In this document: positions 7,622 to 49,997 of the stretch, in pieces
How the letters are laid out: each line of letters begins with the position of its first letter
Position numbering within the stretch: position 1 is the first letter of the stretch
Virus record (IMG/VR): IMGVR_UViG_3300035521_000566
Origin: a virus
Lineage: Duplodnaviria > Heunggongvirae > Uroviricota > Caudoviricetes
Direction: 5' to 3' (one strand)
DNA length: 64,000 nt
Translations under genes and position numbers: made by a program
The notes under the pieces: model-generated
The model's database searches: none
What the model was told of the DNA's origin: nothing
The model's input: only the letters and a program-made list of their open reading frames with translations

Positions 7622-10600
7622 TTATTTCGTCTTGACCTGCTTTACATTTGACCAGCTGCCATAAACTTTCTGACCGTTAACTGTCTTATATGCTCGAACT
7701 CTCACATAATAAGTCGTCTTAGCCTTAAGGTTCTTAATAGTAACCGATGTGCCTGTTATTGCTTTCTTACCTGGCAATCTCATATTTGACTGAGTAGAAT
7801 ACTCTATCTCGTATCCTGATGTACCAGACACTTTATCAAACGAAACCTTGAACTGCTTTGCACCAGCCACAAGCTTGACATTTGCAACCTTTGCCACATT
7901 TATCTTAGACCACTTAGCATACACAGTGATATTGCCAGTGCTTCCCTTTGTAACATTGGTAAGTCGCTTGGTCAAAGCCTTATCAGTATACCAGCCTTTG
8001 AACTCATATCCATATCGTGTTGCTGGATATAATGTAAAGGTCTTTGTATCCTTTGTGTATGATGTTAAATTAAGTGAATTGTTCTTGGTTCCACCATTTA
8101 ACACATAAGTTATGCTGTACTTACCAGAAGTCAGCTTTGCAATTGTCTTAGTCTTAGTTGTTCTGCAAATATTGCATGTGTAGGTCATAATACCAGTCGA
8201 TGACTCTGTAGCCTTCTTTGTGACCTTACCGCTATTCCACTGATGAGTGCTCAACTTTACAATACTCTTACCATTTGAAATCAGCTCACCACAGGTTTTG
8301 CAATATGTATCACCTGTATAGCCTTCGGACTTACATGTAGCATCAAACTTATTCCTAATTTCAGTAGATGCGTGCTTGCATATTACTTTCAATTTTGAAA
8401 TACTCTCTGTATAAGTGTCACCACAATTAGAACAAGTAAATGTTCTAATGCCTGCAGACTCTGTTGTAGCCTGTACGGTAACAACATCGGTGTAAGTATG
8501 TCCTAATGCTTTAATAACTGTTCCAGTTGTTAAAATTTCGTTGCATAGCGTACACTTTATATCGCCTGCATATCCGTTTTCAGTGCAAGTAGCACCTTTT
8601 ACATTTACAATCTCTGTCTCAGAATGAACAGCTAACTTAGGTATCTGAACATTCTTCACAGTATCGCAATTGAGACACTTGCATGTTATTACACCAGAAG
8701 CTTTACAGGTAGGTTCTGTTACAACAGTACCATCATCCCATATATGCTGCAGCTTAGCAATATTTGCTGTCTTCTGCTCTCCACATATAAGACAGGTATA
8801 AAGCTTTGTACCATACTCGCTACAAGTAGGCTGTGACGCTACTCTTGAAACATAAACACAAGTGTGTTCTTCAATCGGAGTGTCGGGTTCAGGACTCTCT
8901 GATTCTGATGGCAACTTTGCAACTTCTTCGGTCTTAGTAATCTCACATACTGCACAGGTATATGTCTTAATACCTGTTGATGTTGTTGTAGGCTGTTTTG
9001 TGATTGAGCCGTTGTCCCAAGTATGAGTAGTAAGCTTTGCAATAGACTCTGTTCTTGTATCATGGCACTCGCTACAAGTGTATGTCTTAACACCAGCCTC
9101 TTTGCAAGTAGCTTGCTTTGTAACCTCGCCAGCATTCCAAGTATGTGCTGAAGCATCTACTGGAACTTCTTCGGTCTTTGTCTCATTACAACCTGAGCAA
9201 TGATAAGTTCTAACACCCTTCTTTGCACAGGTAGGTTCTGCTGTAACGGTACCACTGTCCCATGCGTGCTGATGTGTCAACTTTGCAACGGACTCTGTTT
9301 TTGTTGTACCACATACAGTACAAGTATATGTCTTAATACCTTCTGATGTCTCAGTCGGTTGCGTAGTAACTACGCCGTTGTTCCATGTATGTTCTGTTAA
9401 CTTAGCTATCTGCTCTGTCTTAGTTGTCTTGCAAACAGCACAGGTGAAAGTCTTTATTCCGAAATCCTTGCATGTTGACTGTGTAGTAACTATACCATCA
9501 TCCCAAGTATGATTTACTTTTGAAATAGCAGTTACTTCAGTCTTAGAATCACATCTGGAACAATGCTTTGACTTTGAGCCTTCTTGGCTGCAAGTAGGTT
9601 CTGTATCAACCGTAAATTCAGTTGAATAATCATGACCCAAAGACTGAATATCTTCAGTTGTGGTAGTATGACAAACAGTACATTCCTTCGTCAAAATACC
9701 GTTATCTTCACAAGTAGCTTCTTTCGTAACGGTACCTGAGTTCCAAGAATGAGTAGTCAGCTTCGGAATAACAGTTACCTCAGTCTTAGAATCGCATGAC
9801 ATACAGTGCTTTGATTTTGAGCCTTCTTGATTACAATTCGGCTCTACATCAACTGTAAAATCACTTGAATAATTATGCTCTAACTTCGGAATATTGTCTC
9901 TTGTTTCTGTTGTGCCACAAATCGTGCAAGTGTAAGTTGTCTGACCATATGCAGAACAAGTTGCTTCTCGTGTCACTTCTCCATCATTCCAAGTATGCTC
10001 ACCAGTAGCCGATATTTCTTCGGTCTTAGTAATTCCACAGATTTCGCAAGTATAAGTTCTTAAGCCAGGCTTACATGACGGTGTCACCGTAACCTCACCA
10101 TCATTCCACTTATGACCTGTATGCGTAATCACTTCAACTGTAGCAGATGAACAGCCTTCGTTTGAACACTTAAACTCTTTATAACCATCTTCTTCGCATG
10201 TAGCATCAACAACATCGCCTGCTATTGTATAATTATGCAACGTGCTGTCAGCTGGAATAACTTCTGTATAAGAGTGTCCACAATCACAATAATAAGCCTG
10301 TGAACCTGTTTTAAAACAAGTTGGATTTACAGTAGCACCCTTATTATAGTTATGGACTTCATAACCCTCATATAAAGTGATACTTGCACGATTATTATTC
10401 CAATCATCTAAGTCAAAAAGCGTTGTACGAGCTTCATCTGTATACCACTTCGTAAAGTGATATAATTCGTTGTCTGCAAAATCAACAGTAGGAAATTCTG
10501 CATTTCCGTCAATAGTAAATGATGCAGACTTGTCATATTCAGAATTAGAGTCTGATGAGTCTTTAATCAAGACACCTGAATTACCTTCAGCATCATTTTG

Positions 10601-11983
10601 TACAATAAATGCTATAGCATACTTCTCATTTGCCTTCTGAGCATATTCAATATAATTATCTAAATCTGCCAATGACTCCTGCATACTGCTTACATAACTA
10701 TCAGCTGAGTCTGTTAATGTCGCAGACAGACATGCATTAGCATAAACAGAAAGATTCTCAATAATTTCATTTAGCTCAGGTGAAATATCAGAAGTATCAT
10801 AAAAATCGCAAATATGCTTCACATTTAATGCAAACACATAATCATCTACAATATCAGATGGTGATGCAGACATAAGAGTTGACAATAAAGAGCTAATATC
10901 ATCAGTCTTATCATGATTATACTTTAAATAGCCTTGCAACTGATACACATAAGATATTGCATCAATATCTGAATCAGTAACAACATAATCGTATATATAC
11001 TTTACCAATGTTGCCATCTCATCCTGATATTCATATGTGTTACTATTCGTTTCGTTAATAAATGCACTAACTTTGACACCCCACTTACGAATCTCTAAAT
11101 CATCATCTGTTGACAAAGCATCTAACAAAGCATCACAATTCGCAAAATCATAACCTTGTTTTGATTCATAAAAGTAGTTCAAATATGCTTTTATCTGATT
11201 CACATAAATTTCATCATCTGTTGTATCAAAAGATGAATCGTCTGAGATAGACACATTTAATATATTATCACAGAGTTTCAGGATACCATTATCACTATCA
11301 TAAATATAAGAATAAGAATAATGTGATGAACTGATTGCATCGAGCGTATCCACATATTCAATTACTTTTAAAGCCCACAACATTCTTTCAGCTTCTGTAG
11401 AAGTGCTATCATCGAGCAACTCACTTACATTGCTGAAATCATGCGAAACGACGACTTGTTTAGTATAATCAGAAGCATCAGTGGCACCCAAATCATTAAG
11501 ATAGATATTGAAATCCATATCTGAGTATCTGTCGGAATAAATCAGATTGGTACCGTGACTTGCATTATAGTTAGCTGTTGCAACTGTCGTGTCAACGCTG
11601 CCGTTGAACCAATGAGTTTCGTAATTTATGTCCAGCAATAAATTGTAAAACTCTAAATAAGCCTGAACATGATTCACACAACTGTTAATTATGTTCTCAT
11701 CACTTGAATCAATACCTGTTTCACATACTGTTTTTGCATCACTTTGATATTTAAAATCATCATGATTGTCAAAAAATGTATTGGCATCACTTAACCACTT
11801 CGTTTTTTCTGCAAGTGAATCAGCTGACTCTAAACTATTTAATAGTTCACTAATTTCACTAACAGTTTGTACTTCTTCTGCTGTTACTGCTGCTTGAACT
11901 GGTGTAGCTATATGCAACATACCCATAAGTAACGCTACAATCAATGTCCAGCTCAGCACACGTTTTGTCTGAGACATAGGCAT
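7622..11983 (-). CDS. large secreted repeat protein: N-terminal signal peptide, about 14 tandem ~44-aa Cys-containing repeats (TYTCxxCGxTxTE...H.W..G.VT...TC), Listeria-Bacteroides-type repeat and Fn3-like C-terminus; adhesin or receptor-binding candidate
   Basis: ORF 1453 aa; signal peptide LIVALLMGMLHIATPVQA; periodic Cys4 repeats visible in translation; C-terminal YSITYVLNGGTKNN...GYEFKGWYTD...ITVYAKW matches the LB-repeat pattern. Confidence 0.65.
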   Translation of the reverse strand: MPMSQTKRVLSWTLIVALLMGMLHIATPVQAAVTAEEVQTVSEISELLNSLESADSLAEKTKWLSDANTFFDNHDDFKYQSDAKTVCETGIDSSDENIINSCVNHVQAYLEFYNLLLDINYETHWFNGSVDTTVATANYNASHGTNLIYSDRYSDMDFNIYLNDLGATDASDYTKQVVVSHDFSNVSELLDDSTSTEAERMLWALKVIEYVDTLDAISSSHYSYSYIYDSDNGILKLCDNILNVSISDDSSFDTTDDEIYVNQIKAYLNYFYESKQGYDFANCDALLDALSTDDDLEIRKWGVKVSAFINETNSNTYEYQDEMATLVKYIYDYVVTDSDIDAISYVYQLQGYLKYNHDKTDDISSLLSTLMSASPSDIVDDYVFALNVKHICDFYDTSDISPELNEIIENLSVYANACLSATLTDSADSYVSSMQESLADLDNYIEYAQKANEKYAIAFIVQNDAEGNSGVLIKDSSDSNSEYDKSASFTIDGNAEFPTVDFADNELYHFTKWYTDEARTTLFDLDDWNNNRASITLYEGYEVHNYNKGATVNPTCFKTGSQAYYCDCGHSYTEVIPADSTLHNYTIAGDVVDATCEEDGYKEFKCSNEGCSSATVEVITHTGHKWNDGEVTVTPSCKPGLRTYTCEICGITKTEEISATGEHTWNDGEVTREATCSAYGQTTYTCTICGTTETRDNIPKLEHNYSSDFTVDVEPNCNQEGSKSKHCMSCDSKTEVTVIPKLTTHSWNSGTVTKEATCEDNGILTKECTVCHTTTTEDIQSLGHDYSTEFTVDTEPTCSQEGSKSKHCSRCDSKTEVTAISKVNHTWDDGIVTTQSTCKDFGIKTFTCAVCKTTKTEQIAKLTEHTWNNGVVTTQPTETSEGIKTYTCTVCGTTKTESVAKLTHQHAWDSGTVTAEPTCAKKGVRTYHCSGCNETKTEEVPVDASAHTWNAGEVTKQATCKEAGVKTYTCSECHDTRTESIAKLTTHTWDNGSITKQPTTTSTGIKTYTCAVCEITKTEEVAKLPSESESPEPDTPIEEHTCVYVSRVASQPTCSEYGTKLYTCLICGEQKTANIAKLQHIWDDGTVVTEPTCKASGVITCKCLNCDTVKNVQIPKLAVHSETEIVNVKGATCTENGYAGDIKCTLCNEILTTGTVIKALGHTYTDVVTVQATTESAGIRTFTCSNCGDTYTESISKLKVICKHASTEIRNKFDATCKSEGYTGDTYCKTCGELISNGKSIVKLSTHQWNSGKVTKKATESSTGIMTYTCNICRTTKTKTIAKLTSGKYSITYVLNGGTKNNSLNLTSYTKDTKTFTLYPATRYGYEFKGWYTDKALTKRLTNVTKGSTGNITVYAKWSKINVAKVANVKLVAGAKQFKVSFDKVSGTSGYEIEYSTQSNMRLPGKKAITGTSVTIKNLKAKTTYYVRVRAYKTVNGQKVYGSWSNVKQVKTK

Positions 11984-12042
11984 CCCTTCTTTCTGATAAA
12001 TTTTATATTACTAGCTTCCAGATGGTGCTAATACTATATCTT

Positions 12043-12071
12043 ATTATATATCCATATATGGTAAAATGCAA
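12043..12071 (-). promoter_or_regulatory. class A promoter variant: TTGCAT-TTTACCATATATGGATA-TATAAT
   Basis: Upstream of gene 7622..11983; -35 diverged but palindromic spacer retained. Confidence 0.5.
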
Positions 12072-12105
12072 TTGAATAATCATTCAGCAATGATTAAAAT
12101 AAATA

Positions 12106-12138
12106 AAAAGAGCCAGCACTAAGATGTTGGCTCTTTTG
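12106..12138. terminator. bidirectional hairpin terminator (AGAGCCAGC...GTTGGCTCT flanked by A- and T-runs)
   Basis: Downstream of gene 12182..13384. Confidence 0.45.
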
Positions 12139-12181
12139 TATATCAACTTGAACTGGGCTTTTATGATTCAAGTTATTTTTA

Positions 12182-13384
12182 TTATGATTCTAACTGCTTC
12201 TTCATCTGCTGGTCAAACTTGCCGTTTGCAAATCTCCATGATTTCTGTGAAGCCAGGAATCTGTAAAACTCATCTGTTACAGTAAATGAACCAAAGCTTG
12301 TAAGCTCAGACTTATCAATATCACCTTCGCCATAAACACTGGTATCGCCATCTTTCGCAGCCTGATTTAATGCATTCAAATCGGCTGAAGAATCAGCTCT
12401 TAAGATATATGGCTCTCCGTGAACACCATAGAGATTACCGTTTCTACAAGTAAAGTAGCCTGTGTCATTCCACATGTCACCCTTTACTTCAGTATAAGCC
12501 TTAATAATCTCTTTGTCGAGACTATGGCTGATACCTGTAGGAGAAACCAGCATATCAGGTGAAATCATACCGCCAGCAAACTTCTTTTCAGAATTAGCTT
12601 CGTAATTCTTCATTTGCTTTGCAATTTCCTGCAACTGCTCGGTATTCTCTTCAGCTGAACCCCACATATCATCCTCATCATCGAAATCGTAATCAAAGTC
12701 CTCGAACTCCTCTTCGTCATCGGTGTTCATATTACGGACATATGTATTGATAATATCCATAATTTCATCAGCATAGTTATCAGAATCCAACTGCTCAATA
12801 TCATAATCCGTATACTCATAAGCTGTCTGATACAGGTCTTTAGCAGCCTGTGCCTGATATGCCTGATTCATACGCTTATCAAGCATCTTCTTGAAATCTG
12901 GCTGATTCTTACGTACATCGAAATCAATCGCACTGGAAAGAGTAGGAATTGTCTGTAATGTATACTCTTTACCTGGTTGTGTGATTGTATTCTTGAACAA
13001 TCGCCATGACATCGGCAGAATCGTCTCGTTTCTATTCCAGATAGGTGAGTCACCTGCACGGAATATAATACTGTTACGTTCTGAAATGAATGCCATATCA
13101 TTGTAACTGATAACTGGTACTTCTTTGGTTGTCATCGTATAAGTTGCCTTGCCTTCGTTGGCACTCATACCCTTGAAGATTGTTTCCATATCTCTTGTTA
13201 CAGACTTAGAATCTGTAAATGATTTATGCGTTATACCAGACATTTTCTGCAAGGTATCAAGCATACTATCATCAGTCGACTTCAGGAATACGATGTTACT
13301 TGTGTTTCCTTGCACTATCTTATCTACGCTATCGCCGTAGACATCTTTCAATTGCTGTAATGTTTGTAATATTAAAGATAGCAA
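12182..13384 (-). CDS. type IV coupling protein (VirD4/TraG/TrwB family) C-terminal fragment (putative exon 2) with long acidic tail
   Basis: N-terminus SLILQTLQQLKDVYGDSVDKIVQGNTSNIVF aligns with T4CP motif VVLGLQSISQLRSTYGEDGAQTLLGNLNN; acidic tail DEEEFEDFDYDFDDEDDMW resembles F TraD C-terminus. Confidence 0.55.
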   Translation of the reverse strand: MLSLILQTLQQLKDVYGDSVDKIVQGNTSNIVFLKSTDDSMLDTLQKMSGITHKSFTDSKSVTRDMETIFKGMSANEGKATYTMTTKEVPVISYNDMAFISERNSIIFRAGDSPIWNRNETILPMSWRLFKNTITQPGKEYTLQTIPTLSSAIDFDVRKNQPDFKKMLDKRMNQAYQAQAAKDLYQTAYEYTDYDIEQLDSDNYADEIMDIINTYVRNMNTDDEEEFEDFDYDFDDEDDMWGSAEENTEQLQEIAKQMKNYEANSEKKFAGGMISPDMLVSPTGISHSLDKEIIKAYTEVKGDMWNDTGYFTCRNGNLYGVHGEPYILRADSSADLNALNQAAKDGDTSVYGEGDIDKSELTSFGSFTVTDEFYRFLASQKSWRFANGKFDQQMKKQLES

Positions 13385-13588
13385 TAGGTAAGAATTTGAA
13401 GTTATCTCTATCTTTTCCCCTGCTCCACACCGTGCATGCGACTTTCACCGCACACGGCGTTCCATCACATTTCTGTGACTTGTGTCCATTCCTACTTCTC
13501 TCATTACAAGAGCTATCATCAGTTCGAACACTACTTTTCAATATCCATTAAACTGCTTATTATTCTTCGTCAGTAAACAAACCTGAAT

Positions 13589-13609
13589 TGAATATTGAAA
13601 TATGCTAAA
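13589..13609. repeat. 21-bp inverted repeat TTGAATATTGAAATATGCTAA, left copy (partner at 14829-14849) flanking the endonuclease ORF
   Basis: Perfect 21/21 reverse-complement match. Confidence 0.6.
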
Positions 13610-14756
13610 TATGACTATCTAAATACTTAGTGATTTTATCTTGTGTATCATATGTATACTTAATTTCTAACAATGGAATATTCAATGAAACTGCATAATC
13701 TTTCTTTAATTTATCGTGTTTCTTTTGAATATCAAATCTTGCTTCACCGCCAAACCATTTCACTGGTCTATAATGCTGTTCGCCTTGACATTCAATAAAC
13801 ATATATGGCTTATCATCTTTATAAATTAAAAAATCATACGATAATTTACCATTACCAACACCAAGTAAGTCGTCGTAAGTCTTTTGAACCTCATGCATAA
13901 TGCCTTTGTCATCTAAATATTGTCTCACATAAGACTCCATATAAGGTTGAGCTTTGCATCCACACGACTTACTAATACCTGACTTTAACATATTGCCTGC
14001 TACAATATGCTTTTGATGACAAATGCACTCACATTCCCACATCATTGCCCTGCCACCGCCTGGATAGAATCTGTCATCAACACGTCTTAAAACTGTCCAA
14101 TACCCAAATACACGACCTGTTAAATCTTCATATGTGGCTGCCTTTGCCTGTCTTTCCTTACGATAACAACCACACGATACTGATTTACCAGACAATAAAG
14201 CTTGTTCAGAAACATCTCTGACAGTTCCGCATTCACATTTACAATGCCACATTTTCACACGACGGTTATATTTATAAACACCATCGACTCTATACTCGAC
14301 ATACCATCTTCCAAATGTTTGGTCAGATAAATCTCTGTCAACAGACAATCGTTCAGATTTTAAACATCCGCATGATAATGTTGTACCTGATTTTAATGAA
14401 TGTGCTCTTAAATCTTTTTCTGTACCACAGTCACATCGACAATGCCACATTGTTGCTTTTTTACCAGATGGTTCTATTACAGAATCAGTTCTATATAACA
14501 CAGTCCAACGACCAAATCGTTGGTTTGATAAATCTTCAAGATTAACACCCTTTAAACTTTCTTTACGGGAACATCCACAACTCTTAACACCACCGTTTTT
14601 TAATGATGATGCTCTTACAACAGTTATATTTCCACACTCACACTGGCATTTATACATTACATTGATTCTGCCACTGGATGTAATCTGATTATCTGTTCTA
14701 TGCAACACATGCAACTTTCCAAATGTCTTGTCACTTAAATCTTCAAATTTTCTCAT
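13605..14756 (-). CDS. free-standing endonuclease-like protein: four Cys4 zinc-ribbon repeats + C-terminal Vsr/DUF559-like (PD-(D/E)xK superfamily) nuclease domain; homing-endonuclease candidate
   Basis: Four repeats of the form W(H)CxCxCG...SCGC...FGRW...YRTD; C-terminus YDFLIYKDDKPYMFIECQGEQHY matches the DUF559/Vsr-like pattern DF....IExxGxxH. Confidence 0.55.
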   Translation of the reverse strand: MRKFEDLSDKTFGKLHVLHRTDNQITSSGRINVMYKCQCECGNITVVRASSLKNGGVKSCGCSRKESLKGVNLEDLSNQRFGRWTVLYRTDSVIEPSGKKATMWHCRCDCGTEKDLRAHSLKSGTTLSCGCLKSERLSVDRDLSDQTFGRWYVEYRVDGVYKYNRRVKMWHCKCECGTVRDVSEQALLSGKSVSCGCYRKERQAKAATYEDLTGRVFGYWTVLRRVDDRFYPGGGRAMMWECECICHQKHIVAGNMLKSGISKSCGCKAQPYMESYVRQYLDDKGIMHEVQKTYDDLLGVGNGKLSYDFLIYKDDKPYMFIECQGEQHYRPVKWFGGEARFDIQKKHDKLKKDYAVSLNIPLLEIKYTYDTQDKITKYLDSHI

Positions 14757-14828
14757 TTATAACATCCTCCACCTGCTGTAGTTTATGTAATAAATATACC
14801 ATAATTTGAAGCAAAAATCAATAAGTTT

Positions 14829-14849
14829 AGCATATTTCAATATTCAATT
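14829..14849. repeat. 21-bp inverted repeat, right copy
   Basis: Reverse complement of 13589-13609. Confidence 0.6.
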
Positions 14850-15305
14850 ATCAAGGTTCGCTGAATATCTTTCCAAGTTCCGTTATATCTATCTTTACAT
14901 ATTTACCCTTAGGTCTTTGCTCTAGTCCTGCCTATCTTGATTATGCCTGTAACATAATAAGGAGTTTCATAAGTTCAATTTTTACTAATCCTCAATAGAC
15001 TTAATTATATTTCTATAATTTGCAACTTAAGAACCGTACATTCGCAAATTCGTCAGATATTCATCATTCTAACCATAGGTAATTTATAGACATCCGACAT
15101 ATTAGTCACCATATAATCAATATACTTTCAAACAGGCGGATTCTAATCACTTTTGAACCAATTATACTGATACACATCATACTTAGGCTTCTGTCTGTCG
15201 ACTTTAACGAGCTTCATACAAATCAATGCATGTCGTAGCTTAATGTGAATATTTCAAGGCGTTACCCTATCATTCTATTCATTGATATAACAGTTCGCAT
15301 AATAA

Positions 15306-18300
15306 CTATGCGGCAAAACTTTTCATTTTGCAACTTGTCGCACTAAACTGTTGCTCCTGACCAAGTCCGATGGAAAGCATAGTCTCGAATCCTGAAATAC
15401 CATGTCCTTCTGACTGTAAGTTACCCAACTCATCTAACATAAATCGTGTTTTATAAAGTGGCTTCTGATTACTTTTAGTCATATATGACTGGTCGAAGTT
15501 CAAGTCAACCAACTGCTTAATCAGAATCAAAATCAACTTTGCATATTTCATCAAATGTGGCGGCGTTACCAAGAACACCATCTTAGGCTTCTCTGCGTAA
15601 CGAGCCATCGTACGAATAATTGCATTCGTCTTTACGGTACCACGTTCTGCTCTACCTGTAATATCAACAATCTTATCCTGGTCAAATGTTGTCTTACCCT
15701 TACGGTAAGTAATCTTGCCAGCTTTGTCCTTCACAGGTCGCAACTCTGTTAAGATACCGTTTTTAACTATCTTGTCACCCAGTACAGGGTCTGTTACGTA
15801 CTTCCTGCCGTCCAAAGAAGTCTGATAACTCTTCTTGAACTGGAAGTAAAACTTACGGATTAACATTCCTGTCTGTGGGTTCACTATTTCAAGCTTAATA
15901 TAAGCTGTCTCATTCGGGTATTTACCCTTGAAATAATACTTAGCCCATCCTTCACGAGTGACAAGGTCTTCGTGATAGAACTCTTTGCCAAGCTCATGCT
16001 CGAATCCTGGGTCATCGTAACTCATCCATTTTGCCTGCATACCAATCAGGTGATAGTTATGCACAAAATCTGAGTTGAAACGAACGCCAAGTCTTCGAGG
16101 GAATGACATACCTGCCAAATCTACATTCTGGGCTGGTGTACCCGATGTCAAAGTCGAAATTGTAGGGTCTGTAAAAAACGACATCGCTGTAATAGCAATT
16201 CCGTATACAGACGCCATCATCTTTTCTGCACCTGCCATAGCTTTCAAAGCATTGTTGGCATTGGCTACCAGCGTTCTCATTGAGTTTCTAGGAAGAGCAT
16301 CTGTTGCATTAAAGTAAAGAGTTAATAAGTCAGCCTCAGGCTTATCTTCCCACAACTTAGACTGATTTTCAACTTTTGATACTTCAGCATCATAATCTTC
16401 CTGAGACAAATCGTCTAATTCATGATTCTTTACTTTATTTGCAAATTCTACCGACGGATTCTTAAGCTTTTTACTTGTCAACTGTACGAACAACTGATAA
16501 GTGTTGTAAAGAGTAACCTTACCCCACATCTCGTCCAGCTTTGACTCCAAAATCTTATCATCCATCTTTGTTCGTTCTGCAAACAGTCGAAGCTCTTTTT
16601 CTTCTTCCAGATAAAAGTCAATCAAACCGTAAGCGGCACGCTTGAAAGCATTATTTGCTGCATTGGGCCACACGGGGTCGTCACCACCATCAAGTGGGAA
16701 GAATACATCTGCAATGTTTTCTACATACATCGCAGCTTTGGTGAAGTCTCCCTCCCGTGCAGCATCTGCAGCCATTCCCAGAGGGTTATAAATATCGGTT
16801 TTCATAGCGTTAATCAGATTGAACTGGACTACCTGAAAACCTCTAACAGTTGCCCTGACATAATTCTTAACCAAAAGCTCACCCTTCGGGTCATTGACAA
16901 CCATATTATTTGGTCTTCTTTCTCTTGTCCACATATCAAGTGTAGGTTCAATTACAGTCTGACCTTTACCAGCTCTGGTGATAGCAAGAACCATCGTATT
17001 TACGGGTGCTGTATCTACAATATATGCTCCTGCTGGTCGCTGAGGTTCGTAATACGGAAACTCCCAGTCAGCGTTAATCAAATCTGCAACTGTATTGAAT
17101 TTGCCTAACTTTTCTCGGTCAGAACCATCTGGATTGTATGGAATCTTCGTTGTATCGTAATACTTTCGAATTGTCTTATCCTTTGGAGCACCTGATGCCT
17201 GAAATAAATCTTCCATGAATTCAGTATCTATAATAGGTACCTCGTCATATAATGGATTTCCATCATCATCTAATAAGACTTCCCCTTTGTAATACTCGAT
17301 GTCACCATCTTCATCCAGAATGTCTGTTTCTGCCCTCTTTGAAAGTTTGACTTTCTTCAAGCCCTTATTCATAAGAGCCATATGGGAAATCATACTGGAA
17401 AACTGCACATCCGACGTGGCTCCTACATCTGGGAACCAATCAAACTTTCTTTGTACTTCTTCTGGCAAAGCAATATGTTGGTCATTCTGATATTGGTTAA
17501 TATCAGCTGTATCAGAAAGCATATTCTGTGCCTCTAAGTTACGCATCATTGCTGTATAAATCAAAGCAAACGTAATAGAAGAACAAATAAGTGAAAATAA
17601 CAGCTTTCCTACAGTTGGCTTCCAGCTGATACCTAAAGTATCAGATACAGATTTTGAACTGCTATCATCACTGCTATCATCACTGGTCTCATCATCTGAA
17701 GCATTAACAGGTGTTGAGGAAAATGTGCCAGTTGACAAATCATAATAACTTGAAATAGTTCCCGCAGGACTACCGTCCAGCTCTGTAATCTTTACATCAG
17801 GATGATTTGGGCATGTGTAAACATTCTCCATACCTTCTGTACTAACTGACCACGTATCAATGACTTCACCTGTGGCTGTGTTCGTTACATTATACACGCC
17901 AAACTTTTCTTTCACAATCTGATATGCTGTAGAATTACTATCTGAAACATTGTCGCTTGACGACTCAGTACCTTTAAATTCTCCAGTGTGCATATCATAA
18001 TAAGCCGAAATAGTTGATATTGCACTGCTATCCTGCTCAATAAGTTTGGCTGATGGATAATTAGGACATGTATAAGCATTCTCCGTACCACTTGAATCAA
18101 TGGTCCATGTGTCAATAATTTCGCCTGTTTCAATGGATTTTACATAATAAATTCCATATCCTTCGTCAGACCTTTCAACTTGATACATTGCAGTGCCTGA
18201 TGAATCTTCGTTTCCTCCTTCTTCGTTGATAGGGTTCCCATCTTCATCCACAGACGTTGTTGTATCTGTTGTTACGACGGCTTGATTCATCAAACTGTTT

Positions 18301-18515
18301 AATCCAGGTGACACAATACACGCAATCGCATATGATAATACTGCCACAATCGCTGTGATTACCAGACAAATGATAATACGACCTGTCTTACCCTGCTTAG
18401 CCTGTAAGTGACCACGCTCTAACTGCTGGTCTTCATACACATCACGGTATCGCATGGTATCCTTAGCCTGCTGCTCGCTAATCAGGTCCCAATTTCGTTT
18501 TGCCATTTGCAACAC
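15306..18515 (-). CDS. type IV coupling protein VirD4/TraG-like ATPase, N-terminal part (putative exon 1), with duplicated extracytoplasmic domain
   Basis: VLAITRAGKGQTVIEPTL...MVVNDPKGEL (T4CP Walker A region), RFMLDELGNL (Walker B); TM - two ~65-aa repeats (GYGIYYVKSIETGEIIDTW...YTCPN) - TM - ATPase. Confidence 0.65.
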   Translation of the reverse strand: MLQMAKRNWDLISEQQAKDTMRYRDVYEDQQLERGHLQAKQGKTGRIIICLVITAIVAVLSYAIACIVSPGLNSLMNQAVVTTDTTTSVDEDGNPINEEGGNEDSSGTAMYQVERSDEGYGIYYVKSIETGEIIDTWTIDSSGTENAYTCPNYPSAKLIEQDSSAISTISAYYDMHTGEFKGTESSSDNVSDSNSTAYQIVKEKFGVYNVTNTATGEVIDTWSVSTEGMENVYTCPNHPDVKITELDGSPAGTISSYYDLSTGTFSSTPVNASDDETSDDSSDDSSSKSVSDTLGISWKPTVGKLLFSLICSSITFALIYTAMMRNLEAQNMLSDTADINQYQNDQHIALPEEVQRKFDWFPDVGATSDVQFSSMISHMALMNKGLKKVKLSKRAETDILDEDGDIEYYKGEVLLDDDGNPLYDEVPIIDTEFMEDLFQASGAPKDKTIRKYYDTTKIPYNPDGSDREKLGKFNTVADLINADWEFPYYEPQRPAGAYIVDTAPVNTMVLAITRAGKGQTVIEPTLDMWTRERRPNNMVVNDPKGELLVKNYVRATVRGFQVVQFNLINAMKTDIYNPLGMAADAAREGDFTKAAMYVENIADVFFPLDGGDDPVWPNAANNAFKRAAYGLIDFYLEEEKELRLFAERTKMDDKILESKLDEMWGKVTLYNTYQLFVQLTSKKLKNPSVEFANKVKNHELDDLSQEDYDAEVSKVENQSKLWEDKPEADLLTLYFNATDALPRNSMRTLVANANNALKAMAGAEKMMASVYGIAITAMSFFTDPTISTLTSGTPAQNVDLAGMSFPRRLGVRFNSDFVHNYHLIGMQAKWMSYDDPGFEHELGKEFYHEDLVTREGWAKYYFKGKYPNETAYIKLEIVNPQTGMLIRKFYFQFKKSYQTSLDGRKYVTDPVLGDKIVKNGILTELRPVKDKAGKITYRKGKTTFDQDKIVDITGRAERGTVKTNAIIRTMARYAEKPKMVFLVTPPHLMKYAKLILILIKQLVDLNFDQSYMTKSNQKPLYKTRFMLDELGNLQSEGHGISGFETMLSIGLGQEQQFSATSCKMKSFAA

Positions 18516-18627
18516 TCCTTTCGTTATTTAGTTTTAATGTATTTTATAAAATAAGCGTAGAACAGGTTAACTGTCTACGCTTAATATAAAATCGTATTCA
18601 GACTCTGTTGTCTGATGCTATTCTGTT

Positions 18628-20892
18628 TTATTTATCAGAATCTGTTACTGTATCAGCATTTGAATCCAAATCTGAACCCTGTAACTGATTCATAAAAGCA
18701 TCATTCTGGTCTTCTAATTCATCAAGACGCTGCTGATATTCCTGCATAATTGCTGTGTTTGTATTTGACTGATTTGACTTCAAATTAGCAAACTCGCCTG
18801 CAATAAATCCAATTGCCAGTGCAGCAATGACAGCAATAATAGTCAAGAAAATAGTAGCTATATTGGAATGCTTATTTGTTGCAATAATATGATTGCACTT
18901 GTCTTCCCAAGAATCCTTCTCGTTCTTCAACTCATTGATACGAGAAGAATATTCCTGTGCTTTCTGAGCATCCAGTGAAGAATACTTATCAAGAAGTCCG
19001 TTAATCTCCTGACGCTGGTCAGCTCTAATGTCTTCTGATTCCTGATACTTCTTCTTCCAAGCGTCTTCTTTGTTCTGAAGAGCAAGCTCATTTTCTCTCT
19101 GAATCTGCTCGATTTCAGCCTGCATTGAAACTCTCTTTGCGTCAAATTCAGCGTTAAGACTCTTGAACTTCTCTGTATATTCAGCCGCAACTGCATCTGC
19201 TTTCTGTGACTGACGGAGCTCTTCGGCAAGTGCTTCAGCTCTGGCTACATCGTCCTTACGGTTATCATCAAGATATTCTTTAATCTCATCTTCTAACTCT
19301 TTATGACGAATATGTTCTTCTTCAAGAAGTGCCAAGTACATATCTGAAACCTCAGCAAGTGTCTCGTTAATAGAATAATCAAGACGCTTCAGTGCTTCGC
19401 TCTTACGCTGCTGATTCATATTTCTAAGATTGGTCTGATACTGTGTCTCAATCTCTGTACGAATCATAGGTCCAATCTGAAGTAAATCCTGGTCATGCTG
19501 CTTGCCGTATCTATCACGATAACGATTTCGGGCATCCATGGCAGCACGTTCTGCTTCATCATTTAACTTAGCCTCCCACTCCTGATTGATTTCCATCTTT
19601 CTCTGAGCTACCGTATCTTCGATTTTACGGTTCTCTTCGAGCATAGACTTACGAATCATCTCATTCTGCTGACCATATACAGTAGACAAATCCTGCACAT
19701 CCAACTGCTTCTGAATTGCTTCACAATGCTTTGCCATAGCTTCAAGATAATACTCTTTCATTTTGTAAATGTTAGCAACATGCATTCTGTTCAATTCCAC
19801 GTTGGCATTACGGCTCATCTCATTCAAATAATTATTCAGCCAGCCCTCAGGTCTGTTCTCTTCAAAACGAGCAATGTCGTTTCCGTGAACAAACTGAGAA
19901 TCGAATGGGTCTGTCGAAACCTCAAGACCAAGCTCATCTGAATAGAACTTACGAATAATAGCTTCCTGTACCTGGTCTTTAGTAAACTCAACTCCATCAT
20001 CTTCTACTGGTAATGCGTCTTCACCTTCTGGTAAATCCTCATAGCCTTCGTTATAATAATTATCAGCATATTCATTATTTTCGTCTGCATAATCATCATT
20101 ATATGTATCGTCATAAGACTCTGGCTGATAATCGTCATAAATCGGCACATCTTCTGAATCTGAATCATAAGGTTCATCATCATAATCTGGCTCTTCTTCA
20201 TAATCAGACGATTCTGACATATCTGGATTTTCTGCCTCATATTCTTCTTCTGACATAATATCGTCTACATATTCAGAATCAGCTGATGATTCACTGGAAT
20301 CACTGCTTGTATCAGTGTCAGGATTGTCACCCTCTAATCTGTCAGTTATTGGATAATCTCCTTTTAAGATGCTTGATACATCATCAAATCCTGTTAAAAC
20401 ATCTGTCTTCTCAATCTCGCCTTCAGAATTAACATACACATAAAACCACGGTATGTCTTTCACCATTTCAAATTCTTCTACATTTGCCATAGAAGTTGCA
20501 TTTGGAATAATAACAATCTCTTCATCCTGCAATAACTGTTGTGTAAAATAAGCAGCAATTGCACCGCTGTTTAATTGCTGAACAAGCTGTCCCTTGTCCG
20601 CATTCTTGCTAGACGACTTCTTATCCAAGCCACCCATGTCTGCAGCCTTAATCAAAATACCTACATACTGAGTTTCACCATTTCTCTCTATAACGAAAAG
20701 TTTATTTGACGAAAACTCACTAAGTACCTGCTCAGGTACGGTTTCAGCAAAAAGGTCTGCCATGCCACCCTTTTTCTTTTTACCTGTCTTTGCAACAGGA
20801 GCACTTTTAGTCTGTTCCTGCGTTGACTGTGTTTCCTGTGCTTCAGGAGCTGCGTCAGACTTATTATGCTTATTCTTTTTTACAAAGCCCAT
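18628..20892 (-). CDS. acidic coiled-coil protein with C-terminal transmembrane anchor
   Basis: ORF; likely start at MGFVKK (ATG 20892 with SD AGAAAGGGA) rather than the track start at 20934; Asp/Glu/Tyr-rich segment, long heptad-like Q/E/K-rich region, C-terminal IATIFLTIIAVIAALAIGFIAG. Confidence 0.5.
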   Translation of the reverse strand: MGFVKKNKHNKSDAAPEAQETQSTQEQTKSAPVAKTGKKKKGGMADLFAETVPEQVLSEFSSNKLFVIERNGETQYVGILIKAADMGGLDKKSSSKNADKGQLVQQLNSGAIAAYFTQQLLQDEEIVIIPNATSMANVEEFEMVKDIPWFYVYVNSEGEIEKTDVLTGFDDVSSILKGDYPITDRLEGDNPDTDTSSDSSESSADSEYVDDIMSEEEYEAENPDMSESSDYEEEPDYDDEPYDSDSEDVPIYDDYQPESYDDTYNDDYADENNEYADNYYNEGYEDLPEGEDALPVEDDGVEFTKDQVQEAIIRKFYSDELGLEVSTDPFDSQFVHGNDIARFEENRPEGWLNNYLNEMSRNANVELNRMHVANIYKMKEYYLEAMAKHCEAIQKQLDVQDLSTVYGQQNEMIRKSMLEENRKIEDTVAQRKMEINQEWEAKLNDEAERAAMDARNRYRDRYGKQHDQDLLQIGPMIRTEIETQYQTNLRNMNQQRKSEALKRLDYSINETLAEVSDMYLALLEEEHIRHKELEDEIKEYLDDNRKDDVARAEALAEELRQSQKADAVAAEYTEKFKSLNAEFDAKRVSMQAEIEQIQRENELALQNKEDAWKKKYQESEDIRADQRQEINGLLDKYSSLDAQKAQEYSSRINELKNEKDSWEDKCNHIIATNKHSNIATIFLTIIAVIAALAIGFIAGEFANLKSNQSNTNTAIMQEYQQRLDELEDQNDAFMNQLQGSDLDSNADTVTDSDK

Positions 20893-42196: not shown

Positions 42197-42270
42197 GTAC
42201 CCTGCAAGAGACTCGAACTCTCAACCAAAGCCTTAGAAGGACCATGCTCTAATCCATTGAGCTAACAGGG
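42197..42270 (-). tRNA. tRNA-Arg (anticodon TCT)
   Basis: Hand-folded cloverleaf: acceptor ACCCTGT/GCAGGGT, T-loop TTCGAGT, anticodon loop CTTCTAA. Confidence 0.6.
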
Positions 42271-42277
42271 TGTGTAA

Positions 42278-42353
42278 GTATCTCCGACAGGATTCGAACC
42301 TGCGACAAACCGACGTTCGTAGCGTCGTGCTCTTGTCCGTTGAGCTACGGAGA
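42278..42353 (-). tRNA. tRNA-Arg (anticodon ACG)
   Basis: Acceptor ATCTCCG/CGGAGAT, anticodon stem CGACG/CGTCG, loop CTACGAA. Confidence 0.6.
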
Positions 42354-42361
42354 TATGTAAA

Positions 42362-42432
42362 CAGGCGATAAAGGAATCGAACCTCTGCCCTCAGGGTCAG
42401 AACCTGATTTGCTACCATTACAACAATCGCCT
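42362..42432 (-). tRNA. tRNA-Gln (anticodon CTG)
   Basis: Acceptor AGGCGAT/ATCGCCT, anticodon stem TCAGG/CCTGA, loop TTCTGAC. Confidence 0.55.
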
Positions 42433-42437
42433 ATAAG

Positions 42438-42509
42438 TACGAGTGGAAAGAATCGGACTTTCGTTACTTCCGTATCAGAGAAGTGCTCTACCATTGAACT
42501 ACACTCGCA
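42438..42509 (-). tRNA. tRNA-Ile (anticodon GAT)
   Basis: Acceptor GCGAGTG/CACTCGT, D-stem GTTC/GAGC, loop CTGATAC. Confidence 0.55.
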
Positions 42510-42512
42510 TAA

Positions 42513-42584
42513 AGATTTCGGAGAGAGTCGAACTCTCGTCTACAGGGTTGCAACCTGTCGTCTTAGCCTCTTGACTACGAAATC
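42513..42584 (-). tRNA. tRNA-Cys (anticodon GCA)
   Basis: Acceptor GATTTCG/CGAAATC, anticodon stem ACAGG/CCTGT, loop TTGCAAC. Confidence 0.55.
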
Positions 42585-42590
42585 ATTGAG

Positions 42591-42682
42591 CGTGGATAGT
42601 GAGACTCGAACTCACACACCGCCATAAGACGATTACTCAGAGATTAGCAATCTCTTGCCTTACCAATTAGGCTTATATCCAC
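42591..42682 (-). tRNA. tRNA-Ser (anticodon GCT), long variable arm
   Basis: Acceptor GTGGATA/TATCCAC, anticodon stem AGAGA/TCTCT, loop TTGCTAA, 92 nt. Confidence 0.55.
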
Positions 42683-42689
42683 GAATAAA

Positions 42690-42761
42690 CAGGGCGTATG
42701 GGAATCGAACCCATTCTGCGGGAGTCAAAGTCTCGTGCACTGACCATTATACTAACGCCCA
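42690..42761 (-). tRNA. tRNA-Gln (anticodon TTG)
   Basis: T-arm ATGGG-TTCGATT-CCCAT; loop CTTTGAC; one mismatch in anticodon stem and at 1:72. Confidence 0.45.
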
Positions 42762-42768
42762 ATATAAG

Positions 42769-42842
42769 CAAGTCTGGCAGGAATCGAACCTACGTTGCAT
42801 GGTTTTGGAGACCAGCCGATTTCCAATTATCTTTACAGACTT
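42769..42842 (-). tRNA. tRNA-Trp (anticodon CCA)
   Basis: Acceptor AAGTCTG/CAGACTT; loop CTCCAAA. Confidence 0.5.
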
Positions 42843-42849
42843 ATGATAA

Positions 42850-42934
42850 CGCCGTGCCAGGGATTCGAACCCTGATACCCTTTCGGGATGTCGGTTTTCA
42901 GGACCGATGCTGTACCAATTGAGCCAACACGGCA
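42850..42934 (-). tRNA. tRNA-Ser (anticodon TGA), long variable arm
   Basis: Acceptor GCCGTGT/GCACGGC; anticodon stem TCGGT/ACCGA, loop CCTGAAA; variable hairpin CCCGAAAGGG. Confidence 0.5.
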
Positions 42935-48173: not shown

Positions 48174-48242
48174 GAAAAAAAATTACTCCTTTCTTAACTT
48201 AATAAAACTCCTGTAACTAAATAAAATTACAAGAGCTTTTAG

Positions 48243-48316
48243 TTGCGGGAGCTGGATTCGAACCAGCGTATCCCAGGTTATGAGCCTGATGAGCATCCTC
48301 TACTCGCCATCCCGCT
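48243..48316 (-). tRNA. tRNA-Met (anticodon CAT); A1:A72 mismatch at top of acceptor stem
   Basis: T-arm GCTGG-TTCGAAT-CCAGC, anticodon stem TCAGG/CCTGG, loop CTCATAA. Confidence 0.55.
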
Positions 48317-48326
48317 ATATGTAAAC

Positions 48327-48402
48327 TGCAATGGTGACACTAAGCCTCGAACGTCAAGCCTTGCGGCTTAACGCCCGTCTCCCACGACGTTTTACCCATT
48401 GC
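48327..48402 (-). ncRNA. 76-nt structured element closed by a perfect 7-bp terminal helix (GCAATGG/CCATTGC) but with non-canonical core; atypical tRNA-like or other small RNA
   Basis: Terminal helix and T-loop-like GTTCGAGG present; D and anticodon arms cannot be folded canonically; internal hairpin AAGCC-TTGC-GGCTT. Confidence 0.3.
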
Positions 48403-48482
48403 TATTTCTTATGTGTGCATACATAAGAACCTTATGCCTGAGTTTTAATGTACTGTTCATGCACTCAAGTACATCTGCTCCA

Positions 48483-48553
48483 TACTCGTAATGGGATTCG
48501 AACCCACGTCTAAAGATTAAAAATCCTGCTCTGTCCAAACTGAGCTATACAAG
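48483..48553 (-). tRNA. tRNA, probably Lys (anticodon TTT) with weak 4-bp anticodon stem
   Basis: Acceptor ACTTGTA/TACGAGT, T-arm GTGGG-TTCGAAT-CCCAT, loop TTTTTAA. Confidence 0.4.
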
Positions 48554-48634
48554 TATATTTAACATACACTAAACCTTTATTTATTCATTTATGAGAAGAT
48601 TTTAGCACAATAATACATATTTGTCAAACGAAAA

Positions 48635-48707
48635 TACTTGCAGTGGGACTTGAACCCACGACCTCGGAATTAAGAGTTCCTTGCTCTCCCAACTGAGCTA
48701 TACAAGC
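48635..48707 (-). tRNA. tRNA-Lys (anticodon CTT)
   Basis: T-arm GTGGG-TTCAAGT-CCCAC; loop CTCTTAA. Confidence 0.5.
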
Positions 48708-48753
48708 ATATCACAACAAATCTTGTCATGACTTGCAATATTATTGCAATTAG

Positions 48754-48825
48754 TCCCCCTGACAGGATTTGAACCTGCGATATACTGGTTAAAAGCCAGT
48801 TGCCATTCCGCTTGGCTACAGAGGG
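48754..48825 (-). tRNA. tRNA-Lys (anticodon TTT)
   Basis: Acceptor CCCTCTG/CAGGGGG, D-stem GCCA/TGGC, anticodon stem ACTGG/CCAGT, loop CTTTTAA. Confidence 0.55.
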
Positions 48826-48886
48826 TTATTTACTTTGGTTTTCGACACTTCTGTTTTCGTTTCATACTTATTTCCTTCTTTCTTAA

Positions 48887-48960
48887 ATTATTATAGCGGC
48901 TCCAACGGGAATCGAACCCGTGCTCTACTGCGTGACAGGCAGTTGATTTAACCAGTTAAT
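48887..48960 (-). tRNA. tRNA-Asp (anticodon GTC)
   Basis: Acceptor GGCTCTA/TGGAGCC, anticodon stem ACTGC/GCAGT, loop CTGTCAC. Confidence 0.55.
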
Positions 48961-48964
48961 CTAT

Positions 48965-49048
48965 AGAGCCATAGTCGGTAGGGTGAGATTCGGACTCACA
49001 ACGTTTCTAATGTCACAGTTTTACAGACTGCTTGCTTCACCAGTTTGC
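48965..49048 (-). tRNA. tRNA-Tyr (anticodon GTA), long variable arm
   Basis: Acceptor CGGTAGG/CCTACCG, loop CTGTAAA, 84 nt. Confidence 0.55.
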
Positions 49049-49117
49049 ATACCTACCGTAATCAGTAATAATCAAGGATATAATAATAATCAACCATATT
49101 CATCACTCCTTTTAATA

Positions 49118-49198
49118 AAATCATAAGTACCCGTAGAGGGATTCGAACCCTCACCCTTTCGGGACCTGTTTCTAAGACAAGCATGTATTCCAGTTCCA
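49118..49198 (-). tRNA. tRNA-Leu (anticodon TAG), long variable arm
   Basis: Acceptor GCCCGTA/TACGGGT, loop CTTAGAA, variable hairpin CCCGAAAGGG. Confidence 0.5.
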
Positions 49199-49203
49199 AC
49201 ATA

Positions 49204-49278
49204 CGGGCATAAGTAGGTGTGGTCAGATTCGAACTGACAATAAAATTGTGTTTGAAACAACCCCGTCTACCAGTTGCG
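49204..49278 (-). tRNA. tRNA with anticodon CAA (Leu by anticodon) but class-I length (75 nt)
   Basis: Acceptor GGGTGTG/CACACCT, anticodon stem GTTGT/ACAAT, loop TTCAAAC; no long variable arm. Confidence 0.4.
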
Positions 49279-49282
49279 GCAC

Positions 49283-49366
49283 ACACCCACAGTACACCCG
49301 ATGAGAGTCGAACTCACATGCTGTTACCAGCGTCAGAGCTTAAATCTGATGCGTCTTCCAGTTCCG
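49283..49366 (-). tRNA. tRNA-Leu (anticodon TAA), long variable arm
   Basis: Anticodon stem TCAGA/TCTGA, loop TTTAAGC, 84 nt. Confidence 0.5.
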
Positions 49367-49467
49367 CCACGGGTGCATAATTATTTAATTTTAGTTCACC
49401 TGCGAGTCGCAGGACTTGTAATCGCAATCGTAACATAATCTTAATCTCCTATTCTGAAATATTTGCA

Positions 49468-49538
49468 AGCTGGATAAGCGAATCGAACGCTTGTCATCGG
49501 GTTACAAAGCCGAGGCTCTGCCATTGAGCAAATCCAGC
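49468..49538 (-). tRNA. tRNA-Thr (anticodon TGT)
   Basis: Acceptor GCTGGAT/ATCCAGC; loop TTTGTAA; one mismatch at base of anticodon stem. Confidence 0.45.
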
Positions 49539-49543
49539 ATAGT

Positions 49544-49955: not shown

Positions 49956-49997
49956 CCTCACGCACATTTTTTTTATATCAAGTAAGTGCCTGTTTTA

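Follow-up and report, generated by a model that had tools for sequence, protein, structure and literature searches.

The DNA examined here is one stretch of 64,000 nucleotides (nt) from the virus record IMGVR_UViG_3300035521_000566, referred to below as the window. On its minus strand lies a gene for a type IV coupling protein (T4CP) of the VirD4/TraG type, split by an insert of about 2 kb that holds an open reading frame (ORF) of its own. An earlier note, made from the letters of the sequence, had named three ORFs at this locus, and all of them (15306..18515, 13605..14756 and 12182..13384) are present on the minus strand. The first matches the Pfam family T4SS-DNA_transf (E 8e-13), the last matches TraG-D_C (E 2.9e-7), and Walker A-like (AITRAGKGQT) and Walker B-like (RFMLDELG) motifs are readable in the translation. 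The features by which a T4CP is recognised, namely the ATPase domain, the Walker motifs and the TraG-D_C region, are all present, with the Pfam matches divided between two exons; homologues of the protein bear PF02534, PF10412 and PF12696.

The insertion point lies between the first and second bases of a threonine codon, in the conserved block GQEQQF-T-LILQTLQQL of the ATPase domain. Joining position 15344 to 13377 yields an ORF of 4368 nt with no internal stop, which encodes 1455 amino acids (aa) and reads ...SIGLGQEQQF-T-LILQTLQQLKDVYG across the junction; the predicted ligated exons have ...CAACAGTTTA followed immediately by CTTTAATATT. A protein search with the spliced ATPase region returned 743 relatives, and the best 120 of them, at 64–90% identity, nearly all span the junction fully. 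More than 100 uninterrupted homologues, at 65–81% identity and 100% coverage, carry the same residues with no gap or insert in the alignment, the junction being identical in P0001–P0103, and in an intron-less allele (L023, protein 81% identical) the DNA runs continuously from CAGCAGTTTA into CACTTATCC, the site as a whole reading GGACAGGAGCAGCAGTTTACACTTATCCTTCAGACATTGCAGCAG. The last 11 codons of the upstream ORF (SATSCKMKSFAA, then the stop) are non-conserved intron sequence, while at the other end the final 7 nt of the intron serve as codons 1 and 2 of the downstream ORF (TTG CTA) and the first base of codon 3, so that exon 2 begins at 13377. As a start, exon 2 has only a TTG inside domain VI of the intron, with neither a properly spaced ribosome-binding site (RBS) nor a conserved start codon, and gene callers choose differing starts. 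The host gene is otherwise intact and highly conserved.

Since the junction matches that of uninterrupted homologues and the L023 DNA is continuous across it, the gene is indeed split, and what splits it is a 1966-nt group II intron. The earlier claim of one T4CP gene interrupted by about 2 kb agrees with the Pfam matches on both ORFs and with the in-frame joining, and the claim that the downstream ORF is the next conserved T4CP block agrees with the TraG-D_C match and the gapless junction alignment. The comparisons with uninterrupted homologues and with intron-less alleles, both proposed as checks, came out in its favour, and the two outer ORFs are, on this alignment evidence, best read as two exons of one VirD4/TraG-type T4CP gene. 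The boundaries given for the insert (13385..15340) were within a few bases of the actual ones (13378..15343); the end of the exon 1 homology had been placed slightly early and extends to ...GLGQEQQF plus the first base of the threonine codon (15344).

An Rfam scan of the whole window places two group II models on the insert, on the correct strand and in the correct order: RF02004 (group-II-D1D4-5) at 15083-15298 (104.3 bits, E 1e-21; gathering score 34.5) and RF00029 (group II domains V and VI, D5/D6) at 13378-13462 (61.6 bits, E 1e-9; gathering score 40), the latter over the full length of the model (1-77). A permissive scan of 13200..15500 added nothing else, and the group I model RF00028 had no match in that interval even at E≤1; the proposed search with both classes of intron model therefore succeeded for group II and failed for group I. 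The insert starts with GTGCGAC at 15343 and ends with TTGCTAT at 13378, which in RNA gives the GUGYG 5' end (GUGCG) and AY 3' end (AU) of group II introns together with the in-frame junction of intron-less homologues. The 5' exon terminates in A and the intron in U, which departs from the exon-U/omega-G pattern of group I. The insert thus belongs to the Rfam D1D4-5/IIB-type lineage of group II introns; the class IIB follows Table S1 of Merk, Jones and Eddy (NAR 2025, PMC12350094), which assigns to it the introns that combine D1D4-5 with a CGC triad and a 3' end in AU. The earlier note had thus recognised an intron of the self-splicing type and mistaken its class, which is fixed as group II by the Rfam matches, the ends, D5/D6 and the pairings between exon-binding and intron-binding sites (EBS and IBS). 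The features are collected in Table 1.

Table 1. Predicted features of the interrupted T4CP gene, its intron and the gene within the intron
Feature	Position in window	Strand	Description and basis
Exon 1 of T4CP (VirD4/TraG-type)	15344..18515	-	N-terminal region, transmembrane segment, ATPase domain through Walker B to ...GLGQEQQF + first base of Thr codon
IBS2 GCAAC	15350..15354	-	exon positions -11..-7; pairs with EBS2
IBS1 AGUUUA	15344..15349	-	exon positions -6..-1; pairs with EBS1
Group II intron, 1966 nt	13378..15343	-	5' GUGCGAC...UUGCUAU 3'; RF02004 + RF00029, in-frame joining, junction as in intron-less homologues
5' splice-site consensus GUGCG	15339..15343	-	sequence; invariant in seven related introns
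Ribozyme domains I–III and 5' side of domain IV	14858..15343	-	aligns with the ORF-less L003 intron
EBS2 GUUGC	15022..15026	-	domain I internal loop; comparative
EBS1 UGAACU	14972..14977	-	domain I terminal loop; comparative
Endonuclease gene cassette in domain IV	13572..14857	-	clean insertion relative to the ORF-less L003 intron (blastn)
Promoter-like site TTGATT-17-TATATT with upstream TG	14793..14821	-	consensus scan; precedes endonuclease ORF
RBS GGAGG	14766..14770	-	9 nt before ATG of endonuclease ORF; sequence
Intron-encoded protein, 383 aa	13605..14756	-	four ~68-aa Cys-rich Zn-ribbon-like repeats (~residues 1-270), Vsr/EDxHD-like nuclease domain (~270-383)
Domain V, catalytic triad CGC at 13457..13459	13427..13460	-	RF00029 alignment
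Domain VI, bulged A at 13385 (8th nt from 3' end), presumed branch point	13380..13424	-	RF00029 alignment, comparative
Exon 2 of T4CP	12182..13377	-	(T)LILQTLQQLKDVYG..., TraG-D_C region, acidic C-terminal tail; Pfam + junction alignment

The intron has no reverse transcriptase (RT) of its own. A tblastn search of the whole 64 kb with two group II RTs gave no match at E≤1, and Pfam and PHROG searches found no RVT or maturase signal in the ORF that occupies domain IV. A twintron and an intein were also considered and rejected, because no second ribozyme match lies inside the intron and the domain IV ORF has its own stop. The D5/D6 segment is 87–96% identical to that of RT-bearing introns on Enterococcus, Bacillus and Cetobacterium plasmids. 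When 12000-19000 was compared by megablast with collections of phages and plasmids, only this segment of about 90 nt was matched, in RT-bearing introns of Firmicutes and Cetobacterium plasmids, and the element itself was found in neither collection.

Seven related introns at the same T4CP site were compared with RNAalifold, a single-sequence minimum-free-energy fold of the 5' 587 nt having been uninformative (z -0.67). In the 5' part 68 of the 118 predicted pairs show compensatory changes. In the 3' part the figure is 21 of 55, against 10.7 ± 2.0 in shuffles, none of 500 of which reached the observed value; 99% of the cells in this part are paired, and slid controls gave only 0–4 compensated pairs. 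Domain V retains all of its 14 pairs in the seven loci, two of them with compensatory changes, and in domain VI six of the 12 pairs are compensated, with the helix variants GCAG/UUGC, CCGG/UCGG and CUGG/UCAG. The structured non-coding flanks described in the earlier note are therefore well founded, both in the Rfam matches and in this covariation of the 3' part. EBS2 forms five of five Watson–Crick pairs with the IBS2 of its own exon in every one of the seven loci and only 3–4 pairs with non-cognate exons; it tracks three IBS2 variants (GCAAC/GUUGC, GCAGC/GCUGC and UCAGC/GCUGA) and follows synonymous changes in the exon. EBS1 (UGAACU) pairs with IBS1 in 7/7 loci, AGUUCA variants included. Judged by these comparisons, the intron RNA displays every sequence and structure hallmark of a functional ribozyme, and the covariation between EBS2 and IBS2 is direct comparative evidence that the RNA still recognises its exons.

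The domain IV cassette, with its promoter-like site, RBS and 383-aa ORF, is an independent gene and encodes no RT or maturase. As the earlier note had it, the product consists of four Cys-rich repeats and a Vsr-like nuclease domain of the homing-endonuclease type. The repeats follow the pattern FG-x-W-x-V ... W-x-C-x-C-x-C-G ... L-x-S-G ... S-C-G-C, and the protein matches phage families annotated as HNH or homing endonucleases (PHROG 374, 559 and 9084). Its C-terminal part, of about 115 aa, has the Vsr-type nuclease fold. BLASTP aligns 99 aa with the nuclease domain of the group II intron ORF of phage AR9 (28% identity, E 8e-10). E274, D308, E322, H328 and D348 are invariant in 55–67 homologues, and their order would be compatible with the EDxHD motif. 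When 55 homologues are aligned, the invariant positions are the Cys residues and E274, D308, E322, Q324, G325, H328, D348 and K351. A sequence-profile search of the PDB with alignment A3 (55 full-length homologues) gave no match at E≤10, and neither the 383-aa protein nor a single repeat matched CapR, DUF4379 or DUF723 in Pfam at E≤10; the Cys-rich repeats may be distant relatives of the repeats of these families. The ratio of non-synonymous to synonymous substitution (dN/dS) between homologues is 0.06–0.17 where dS is unsaturated, which places the protein under purifying selection. Its closest homologues (52–71% identity) are without exception encoded in domain IV of introns of this type. In 6/7 of the related group II cassettes a TG-extended -10 element (TGnTATAAT-like) stands 40–48 nt before the ATG, and its recurrence across loci is suggestive.

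Homologous introns occupy exactly the same T4CP site in L003, L013, L014, L015, L016, L018–L020 and L072/L033. The first of these, reached through P0092, a 90%-identical exon 1 product, holds a 652-nt version of the same intron that lacks the ORF. In L013, L014, L015 (Virgibacillus sp. AGTR), L016 and L018–L020 a close homologue of the intron ORF lies between the RF02004 and RF00029 matches at the same T4CP position, and a metagenome-assembled genome of Lachnospiraceae (L072/L033) also bears an intron at the site. The last two loci came from a scan of genome_contigs (596 Gb) with CARCAGTTYAGTGCGAC, a pattern that proved too short: among the 80 loci listed for 104 matching stretches only L033 and L072 passed the regex filter, and tblastn confirmed both. 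In L101 tblastn found no T4CP, and both matches to the pattern in viral_contigs were due to chance. Among the intron-bearing loci the T4CP exons have diverged to 54–88% amino-acid identity. The presence of the intron is sporadic, most T4CP homologues being without it, while the insertion site is constant. The T4CP of the window is closest to that of L003 (88% aa), but its ribozyme is closest to those of L013 and L014 (82–83% nt, versus 76% with L003), which points to a modest incongruence between host gene and intron.

Several of these loci hold further intervening sequences. In L003 a second one (13805-15302) begins 55 nt downstream, after the mini-exon (T)LILQTLQQLKDVYG, and encodes a 337-aa endonuclease 40–45% identical to the window protein. 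Rfam itself makes no call there, and about 100 nt resemble a sub-threshold RF00028 match in Staphylococcus phage DELF3; this second sequence is probably a group I intron. The phage itself (vB_SauH_DELF3; L130 1443-2571, record 52.6–53.8 kb) shows four consecutive RF00028 matches, three of 95–104 bits and one of 37 bits, in an unannotated gap after the tail tube gene. In the Lachnospiraceae genome (CALAWD01) breaks near residues 509, 577, 770, 989, 1058 and 1087 divide the T4CP gene into seven or more pieces, and a span of 8 kb holds three group II D5 motifs. Two D1D4-5-type group II introns occur in the T4CP gene of the cultured Virgibacillus sp. AGTR (GCA_016919725.2, contig JAJERH010000004.1; L015 519-3218 and 4455-6430), the upstream one with a 625-aa RT and the downstream one with the Zn-ribbon/Vsr endonuclease; this isolate would serve as an experimental system. 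More RF00029 matches occur upstream in the same T4CP gene in L018 (3532-3616) and L020 (1-1903); one of those in L020 follows a 599-aa ORF with DUF723 and DUF7487 matches, that is, a second endonuclease-carrying group II intron with CapR/DUF723-type repeats as in Merk et al. The T4CP family appears to be an intron hot spot. In L021 (5001-6743) and L022 (2556-4298) a free-standing 580-aa homologue of the endonuclease (38% identical) is flanked by paralogous ORFs of 139 aa in the vicinity of a MobL gene, and no sign of an intron is seen there. The T4CP homologues P0023–P0108, whose ATPase regions are 64–73% identical throughout their length, carry the names of high-GC Actinobacteria (Nocardiopsis, Kribbella, Streptomyces, Amycolatopsis, Arthrobacter), although the window has 33–43% GC, and such cross-phylum conservation is unusually high for a conjugation protein.

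The usual group II intron is a retroelement and depends on an RT of its own for movement. The locus described here suggests another arrangement, to which we give a probability of about 80%: a D1D4-5/IIB-type group II intron in the T4CP gene of a conjugative element, carrying a Zn-ribbon/Vsr homing-endonuclease cassette, that is spliced at the RNA level and homes at the DNA level. The intron would be removed from the RNA by branching at A13385, guided by the pairing of EBS1 and EBS2 with IBS1 and IBS2, and splicing would restore a full-length T4CP and so make conjugation possible. The 383-aa protein would cut intron-less T4CP alleles near the insertion site, and the intron-plus allele would then be copied in by double-strand-break repair, a DNA-level homing as with the endonucleases of group I introns and not retrohoming. 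Mobility of this kind is supported indirectly by the sporadic presence of the intron at a fixed site, by the related endonuclease in the group I-like sequence of L003, by the free-standing homologues in L021 and L022 and by the modest incongruence. Several points weigh against the proposal. Splicing and DNA cleavage are both inferred from sequence, and efficient splicing in vivo of a IIB-type intron that has no maturase is assumed. The strand motif of the nuclease is E-x-Q (E322, Q324) where the AR9 protein and other relatives have E-x-D, so that nuclease activity is assumed rather than shown. The total number of sites in the promoter scan is not above chance, nor is the promoter-like site on its own. 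Exon identity rises toward the junction, as co-conversion would have it, but this test is confounded by the conservation of the protein there. The 64-kb window is part of an element of at least 184 kb (JGI 3300035522 Ga0376477_0000002), where an RT or maturase acting in trans could lie elsewhere, and the T4CP gene of L015 does contain an RT-bearing intron of the same type.

The layout of the locus, a gene split at a conserved block with structured flanks and a free-standing endonuclease ORF, resembles that of phage group I introns, and the homologous endonuclease of L003 appears to sit in just such an intron 55 nt downstream. A group I intron with a homing endonuclease nevertheless has next to no chance of being the answer here, given that two group II models score above gathering where RF00028 does not reach E≤1, that the exon and intron ends are not those of group I, and that D5, D6 and the EBS–IBS pairings are present and covary. 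The earlier note had offered as its own alternative an endonuclease insertion that leaves the ATPase as two polypeptides, and the insert might more generally be dead, the T4CP being a pair of cooperating polypeptides (a fractured gene) or a pseudogene. That splicing is read from the letters of the DNA, that the intron lacks a maturase and that gene callers annotate two ORFs would all fit such a view. It is very unlikely all the same: 99% of pairs are kept, with many compensatory changes, across exons diverged as far as 54–88% aa identity, EBS2 follows synonymous exon changes, and the host gene is conserved. Exon 1 runs into 11 non-conserved codons, and the conservation of the ribozyme in seven loci, together with an exon 2 that lacks a conserved start or well-spaced RBS, makes two polypeptides in particular improbable.

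The remaining possibilities accept splicing and differ in what they make of the intron-encoded protein. The intron could move mainly by retrohoming, with another group II intron of the element or cell as the source of an RT in trans and the endonuclease gene as a passenger that invaded domain IV. Intact EBS–IBS pairing is a requirement of reverse splicing, an ORF-less relative exists (L003), an RT-bearing D1D4-5 intron lies upstream in the T4CP gene of L015, and trans action of an RT has been proposed for the ORF-less phage introns (PMC12350094). Against this, splicing needs the EBS–IBS pairing anyway, the window holds no RT, and the endonuclease is under purifying selection and has been kept with the intron at the site although its homologues are only 52–71% identical; we consider retrohoming in trans unlikely. 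The ORF might also have ceased to be a homing nuclease and been domesticated as a splicing helper (maturase) or a DNA-binding regulator. The replacement of E-x-D by E-x-Q at the metal-site strand and the stable association with one ribozyme lineage could be taken in that sense, and LAGLIDADG proteins of group I introns do double as maturases. However, E-x-Q, D308, H328, D348 and K351 are invariant in 55–67 homologues, including the free-standing L021 and L022 proteins and the L003 copy in another type of intron, which fits a mobile nuclease, and some PD-(D/E)xK enzymes that are active, BglII for one, have a D...ExQ site; domestication seems quite improbable. Equally doubtful is the thought that the Zn-ribbon/Vsr protein is the dedicated partner of this ribozyme lineage in place of an RT/maturase, binding the intron RNA and aiding its folding or splicing, or acting with reverse-spliced RNA when the T4CP site is invaded. 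Position in domain IV, ribozyme and insertion site are all kept with homologues at 52–71% identity and under purifying selection, whereas the ORF-less relative, the homologue in a group I-like intron and the free-standing homologues tell against it. If it were true, group II introns would include a type of ribonucleoprotein that works without an RT, and these large elements would depend on the protein for conjugation.

The replacement of the RT gene by a DNA homing endonuclease, as in the arrangement we favour, is rare; it is known mainly from organelles and, since 2025, from four jumbo-phage introns. These are the introns of Bacillus phages AR9/PBS1 and Staphylococcus phages S6 and MarsHill (PMC12350094), whose proteins have 'three to five ~60aa domains' related to CapR, DUF4379 or DUF723 and then a C-terminal EDxHD/Vsr-like domain; the introns are mostly of D1D4-5-type IIB and have ORF-less relatives, and homologous endonucleases occur in nearby group I introns (PMC12350094). 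The window intron fits this kind. The AR9/PBS1 and S6 introns belong to the same ribozyme lineage (D1D4-5 plus RF00029) and end in 3' AU, those of AR9/PBS1 also having the CGC triad; there is no RT, and domain IV encodes several Zn-binding repeats and, after them, a homologous EDxHD/Vsr-like nuclease domain of about 100 aa. ORF-less relatives, and a homologous endonuclease in a neighbouring group I-like intron of the host gene (here in L003), are shared as well. The host of the published introns is a phage and the gene that of a virion RNA polymerase subunit, in contrast to the T4CP of a conjugative element with a MobL relaxase. Their repeats match DUF4379 at E≤10 (AR9, S6 and MarsHill) and also CapR (AR9 and S6), unlike those of the window, and the AR9 intron has a 5' GUAUG and E-x-D where the window has GUGCG and E-x-Q. 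What is new is the host context, with a different type of DNA-binding repeat, and the main value of the locus lies in the comparative evidence and in the extension to conjugative elements.

Other systems share single aspects. I-Bth0305I, the prototype of the EDxHD homing endonuclease family, comes from the recA gene of Bacillus phage 0305phi8-36, where a group I intron encodes it (PMC3239194, PDB 3r3p); it differs in its intron class and its NUMOD-type repeats and has no profile match to the window protein family at E≤10. Fungal and algal organelles, and a few bacteria as well, have group II introns that encode LAGLIDADG homing endonucleases (PMC13190283; Mullineux et al. 2010, cited in PMC12350094). 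These introns too have a DNA homing endonuclease instead of an RT/maturase, a presumed double-strand-break mobility and an RNA that self-splices, but the nuclease is of another superfamily than the Vsr/PD-(D/E)xK-like one, the hosts are mostly organellar rRNA genes, and the origin is independent. Ll.LtrB and related RT-encoding introns reside in conjugation genes of Firmicutes plasmids (PMC1874635) and likewise make conjugation dependent on the splicing of a group II intron in an essential gene. They use an LtrA-type RT/maturase and retrohoming, and Ll.LtrB is a IIA intron of a relaxase gene, whereas the window intron has no RT and sits in a T4CP. With phage group I introns that have homing endonucleases, such as the td intron with I-TevI in phage T4, the window intron shares a principle: an endonuclease gene spreads into a conserved coding site by DNA homing, and the host gene is protected from it because the RNA splices itself. 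The ribozyme class is different, group I splicing being initiated by guanosine and group II splicing proceeding through a branch-point lariat. A full-text literature search returned no paper that joins group II intron, coupling protein, conjugative and homing endonuclease.

Many diverged elements, that of the cultured Virgibacillus isolate included, have the partnership of ribozyme and Vsr nuclease at the same conserved T4CP site, and conjugative transfer of the element should depend on splicing. Because gene callers report two 'genes' for the T4CP, plus an unnamed ORF, such elements would be mis-annotated as having no intact coupling protein. The site also offers a natural system in which group I and group II carriers of related endonucleases could be compared in one gene.

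Among the roughly 20 ORFs scanned elsewhere in the window are genes for a MobL relaxase (53491-55620), a ClpB-like AAA ATPase, a D5-type primase and a lysozyme-domain protein. Together with the T4CP, this content looks like that of a conjugative element and not of a phage, though the element may alternatively be a phage-plasmid. Two tRNA arrays on the minus strand (42197-42934 and 48242-50799) comprise 30 tRNA genes for 19 amino acids, with none for Trp, and one of the tRNAs has an 8-nt anticodon loop (50430-50500); it is unusual to find arrays of such size in anything but giant phages. Directly downstream of the T4CP gene, 7622-11983 on the minus strand encodes a 1453-aa secreted protein in which Cys-rich modules of some 45 aa (C-x2-C ... 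T-x-T-E) are repeated many times in tandem, with Flg_new/fn3-type repeats at the C terminus, which may be a surface adhesin for mating. In L013 (8203-11188), L015 and L016 (7812-11209) the gene after the T4CP instead encodes a protein of 1764–2048 aa with faint matches to RNA polymerase Rpb1/Rpb2 domains. On the 250-kb contig with the intron-less T4CP (L023 4742-7636 and 13873-18472) the neighbouring ClpB-like ATPase has 964 aa, against 597 aa for its homologue in the window, and the LAGLIDADG_3 match that it contains likely marks an intein; gyrB- and gyrA-like genes follow the T4CP there.

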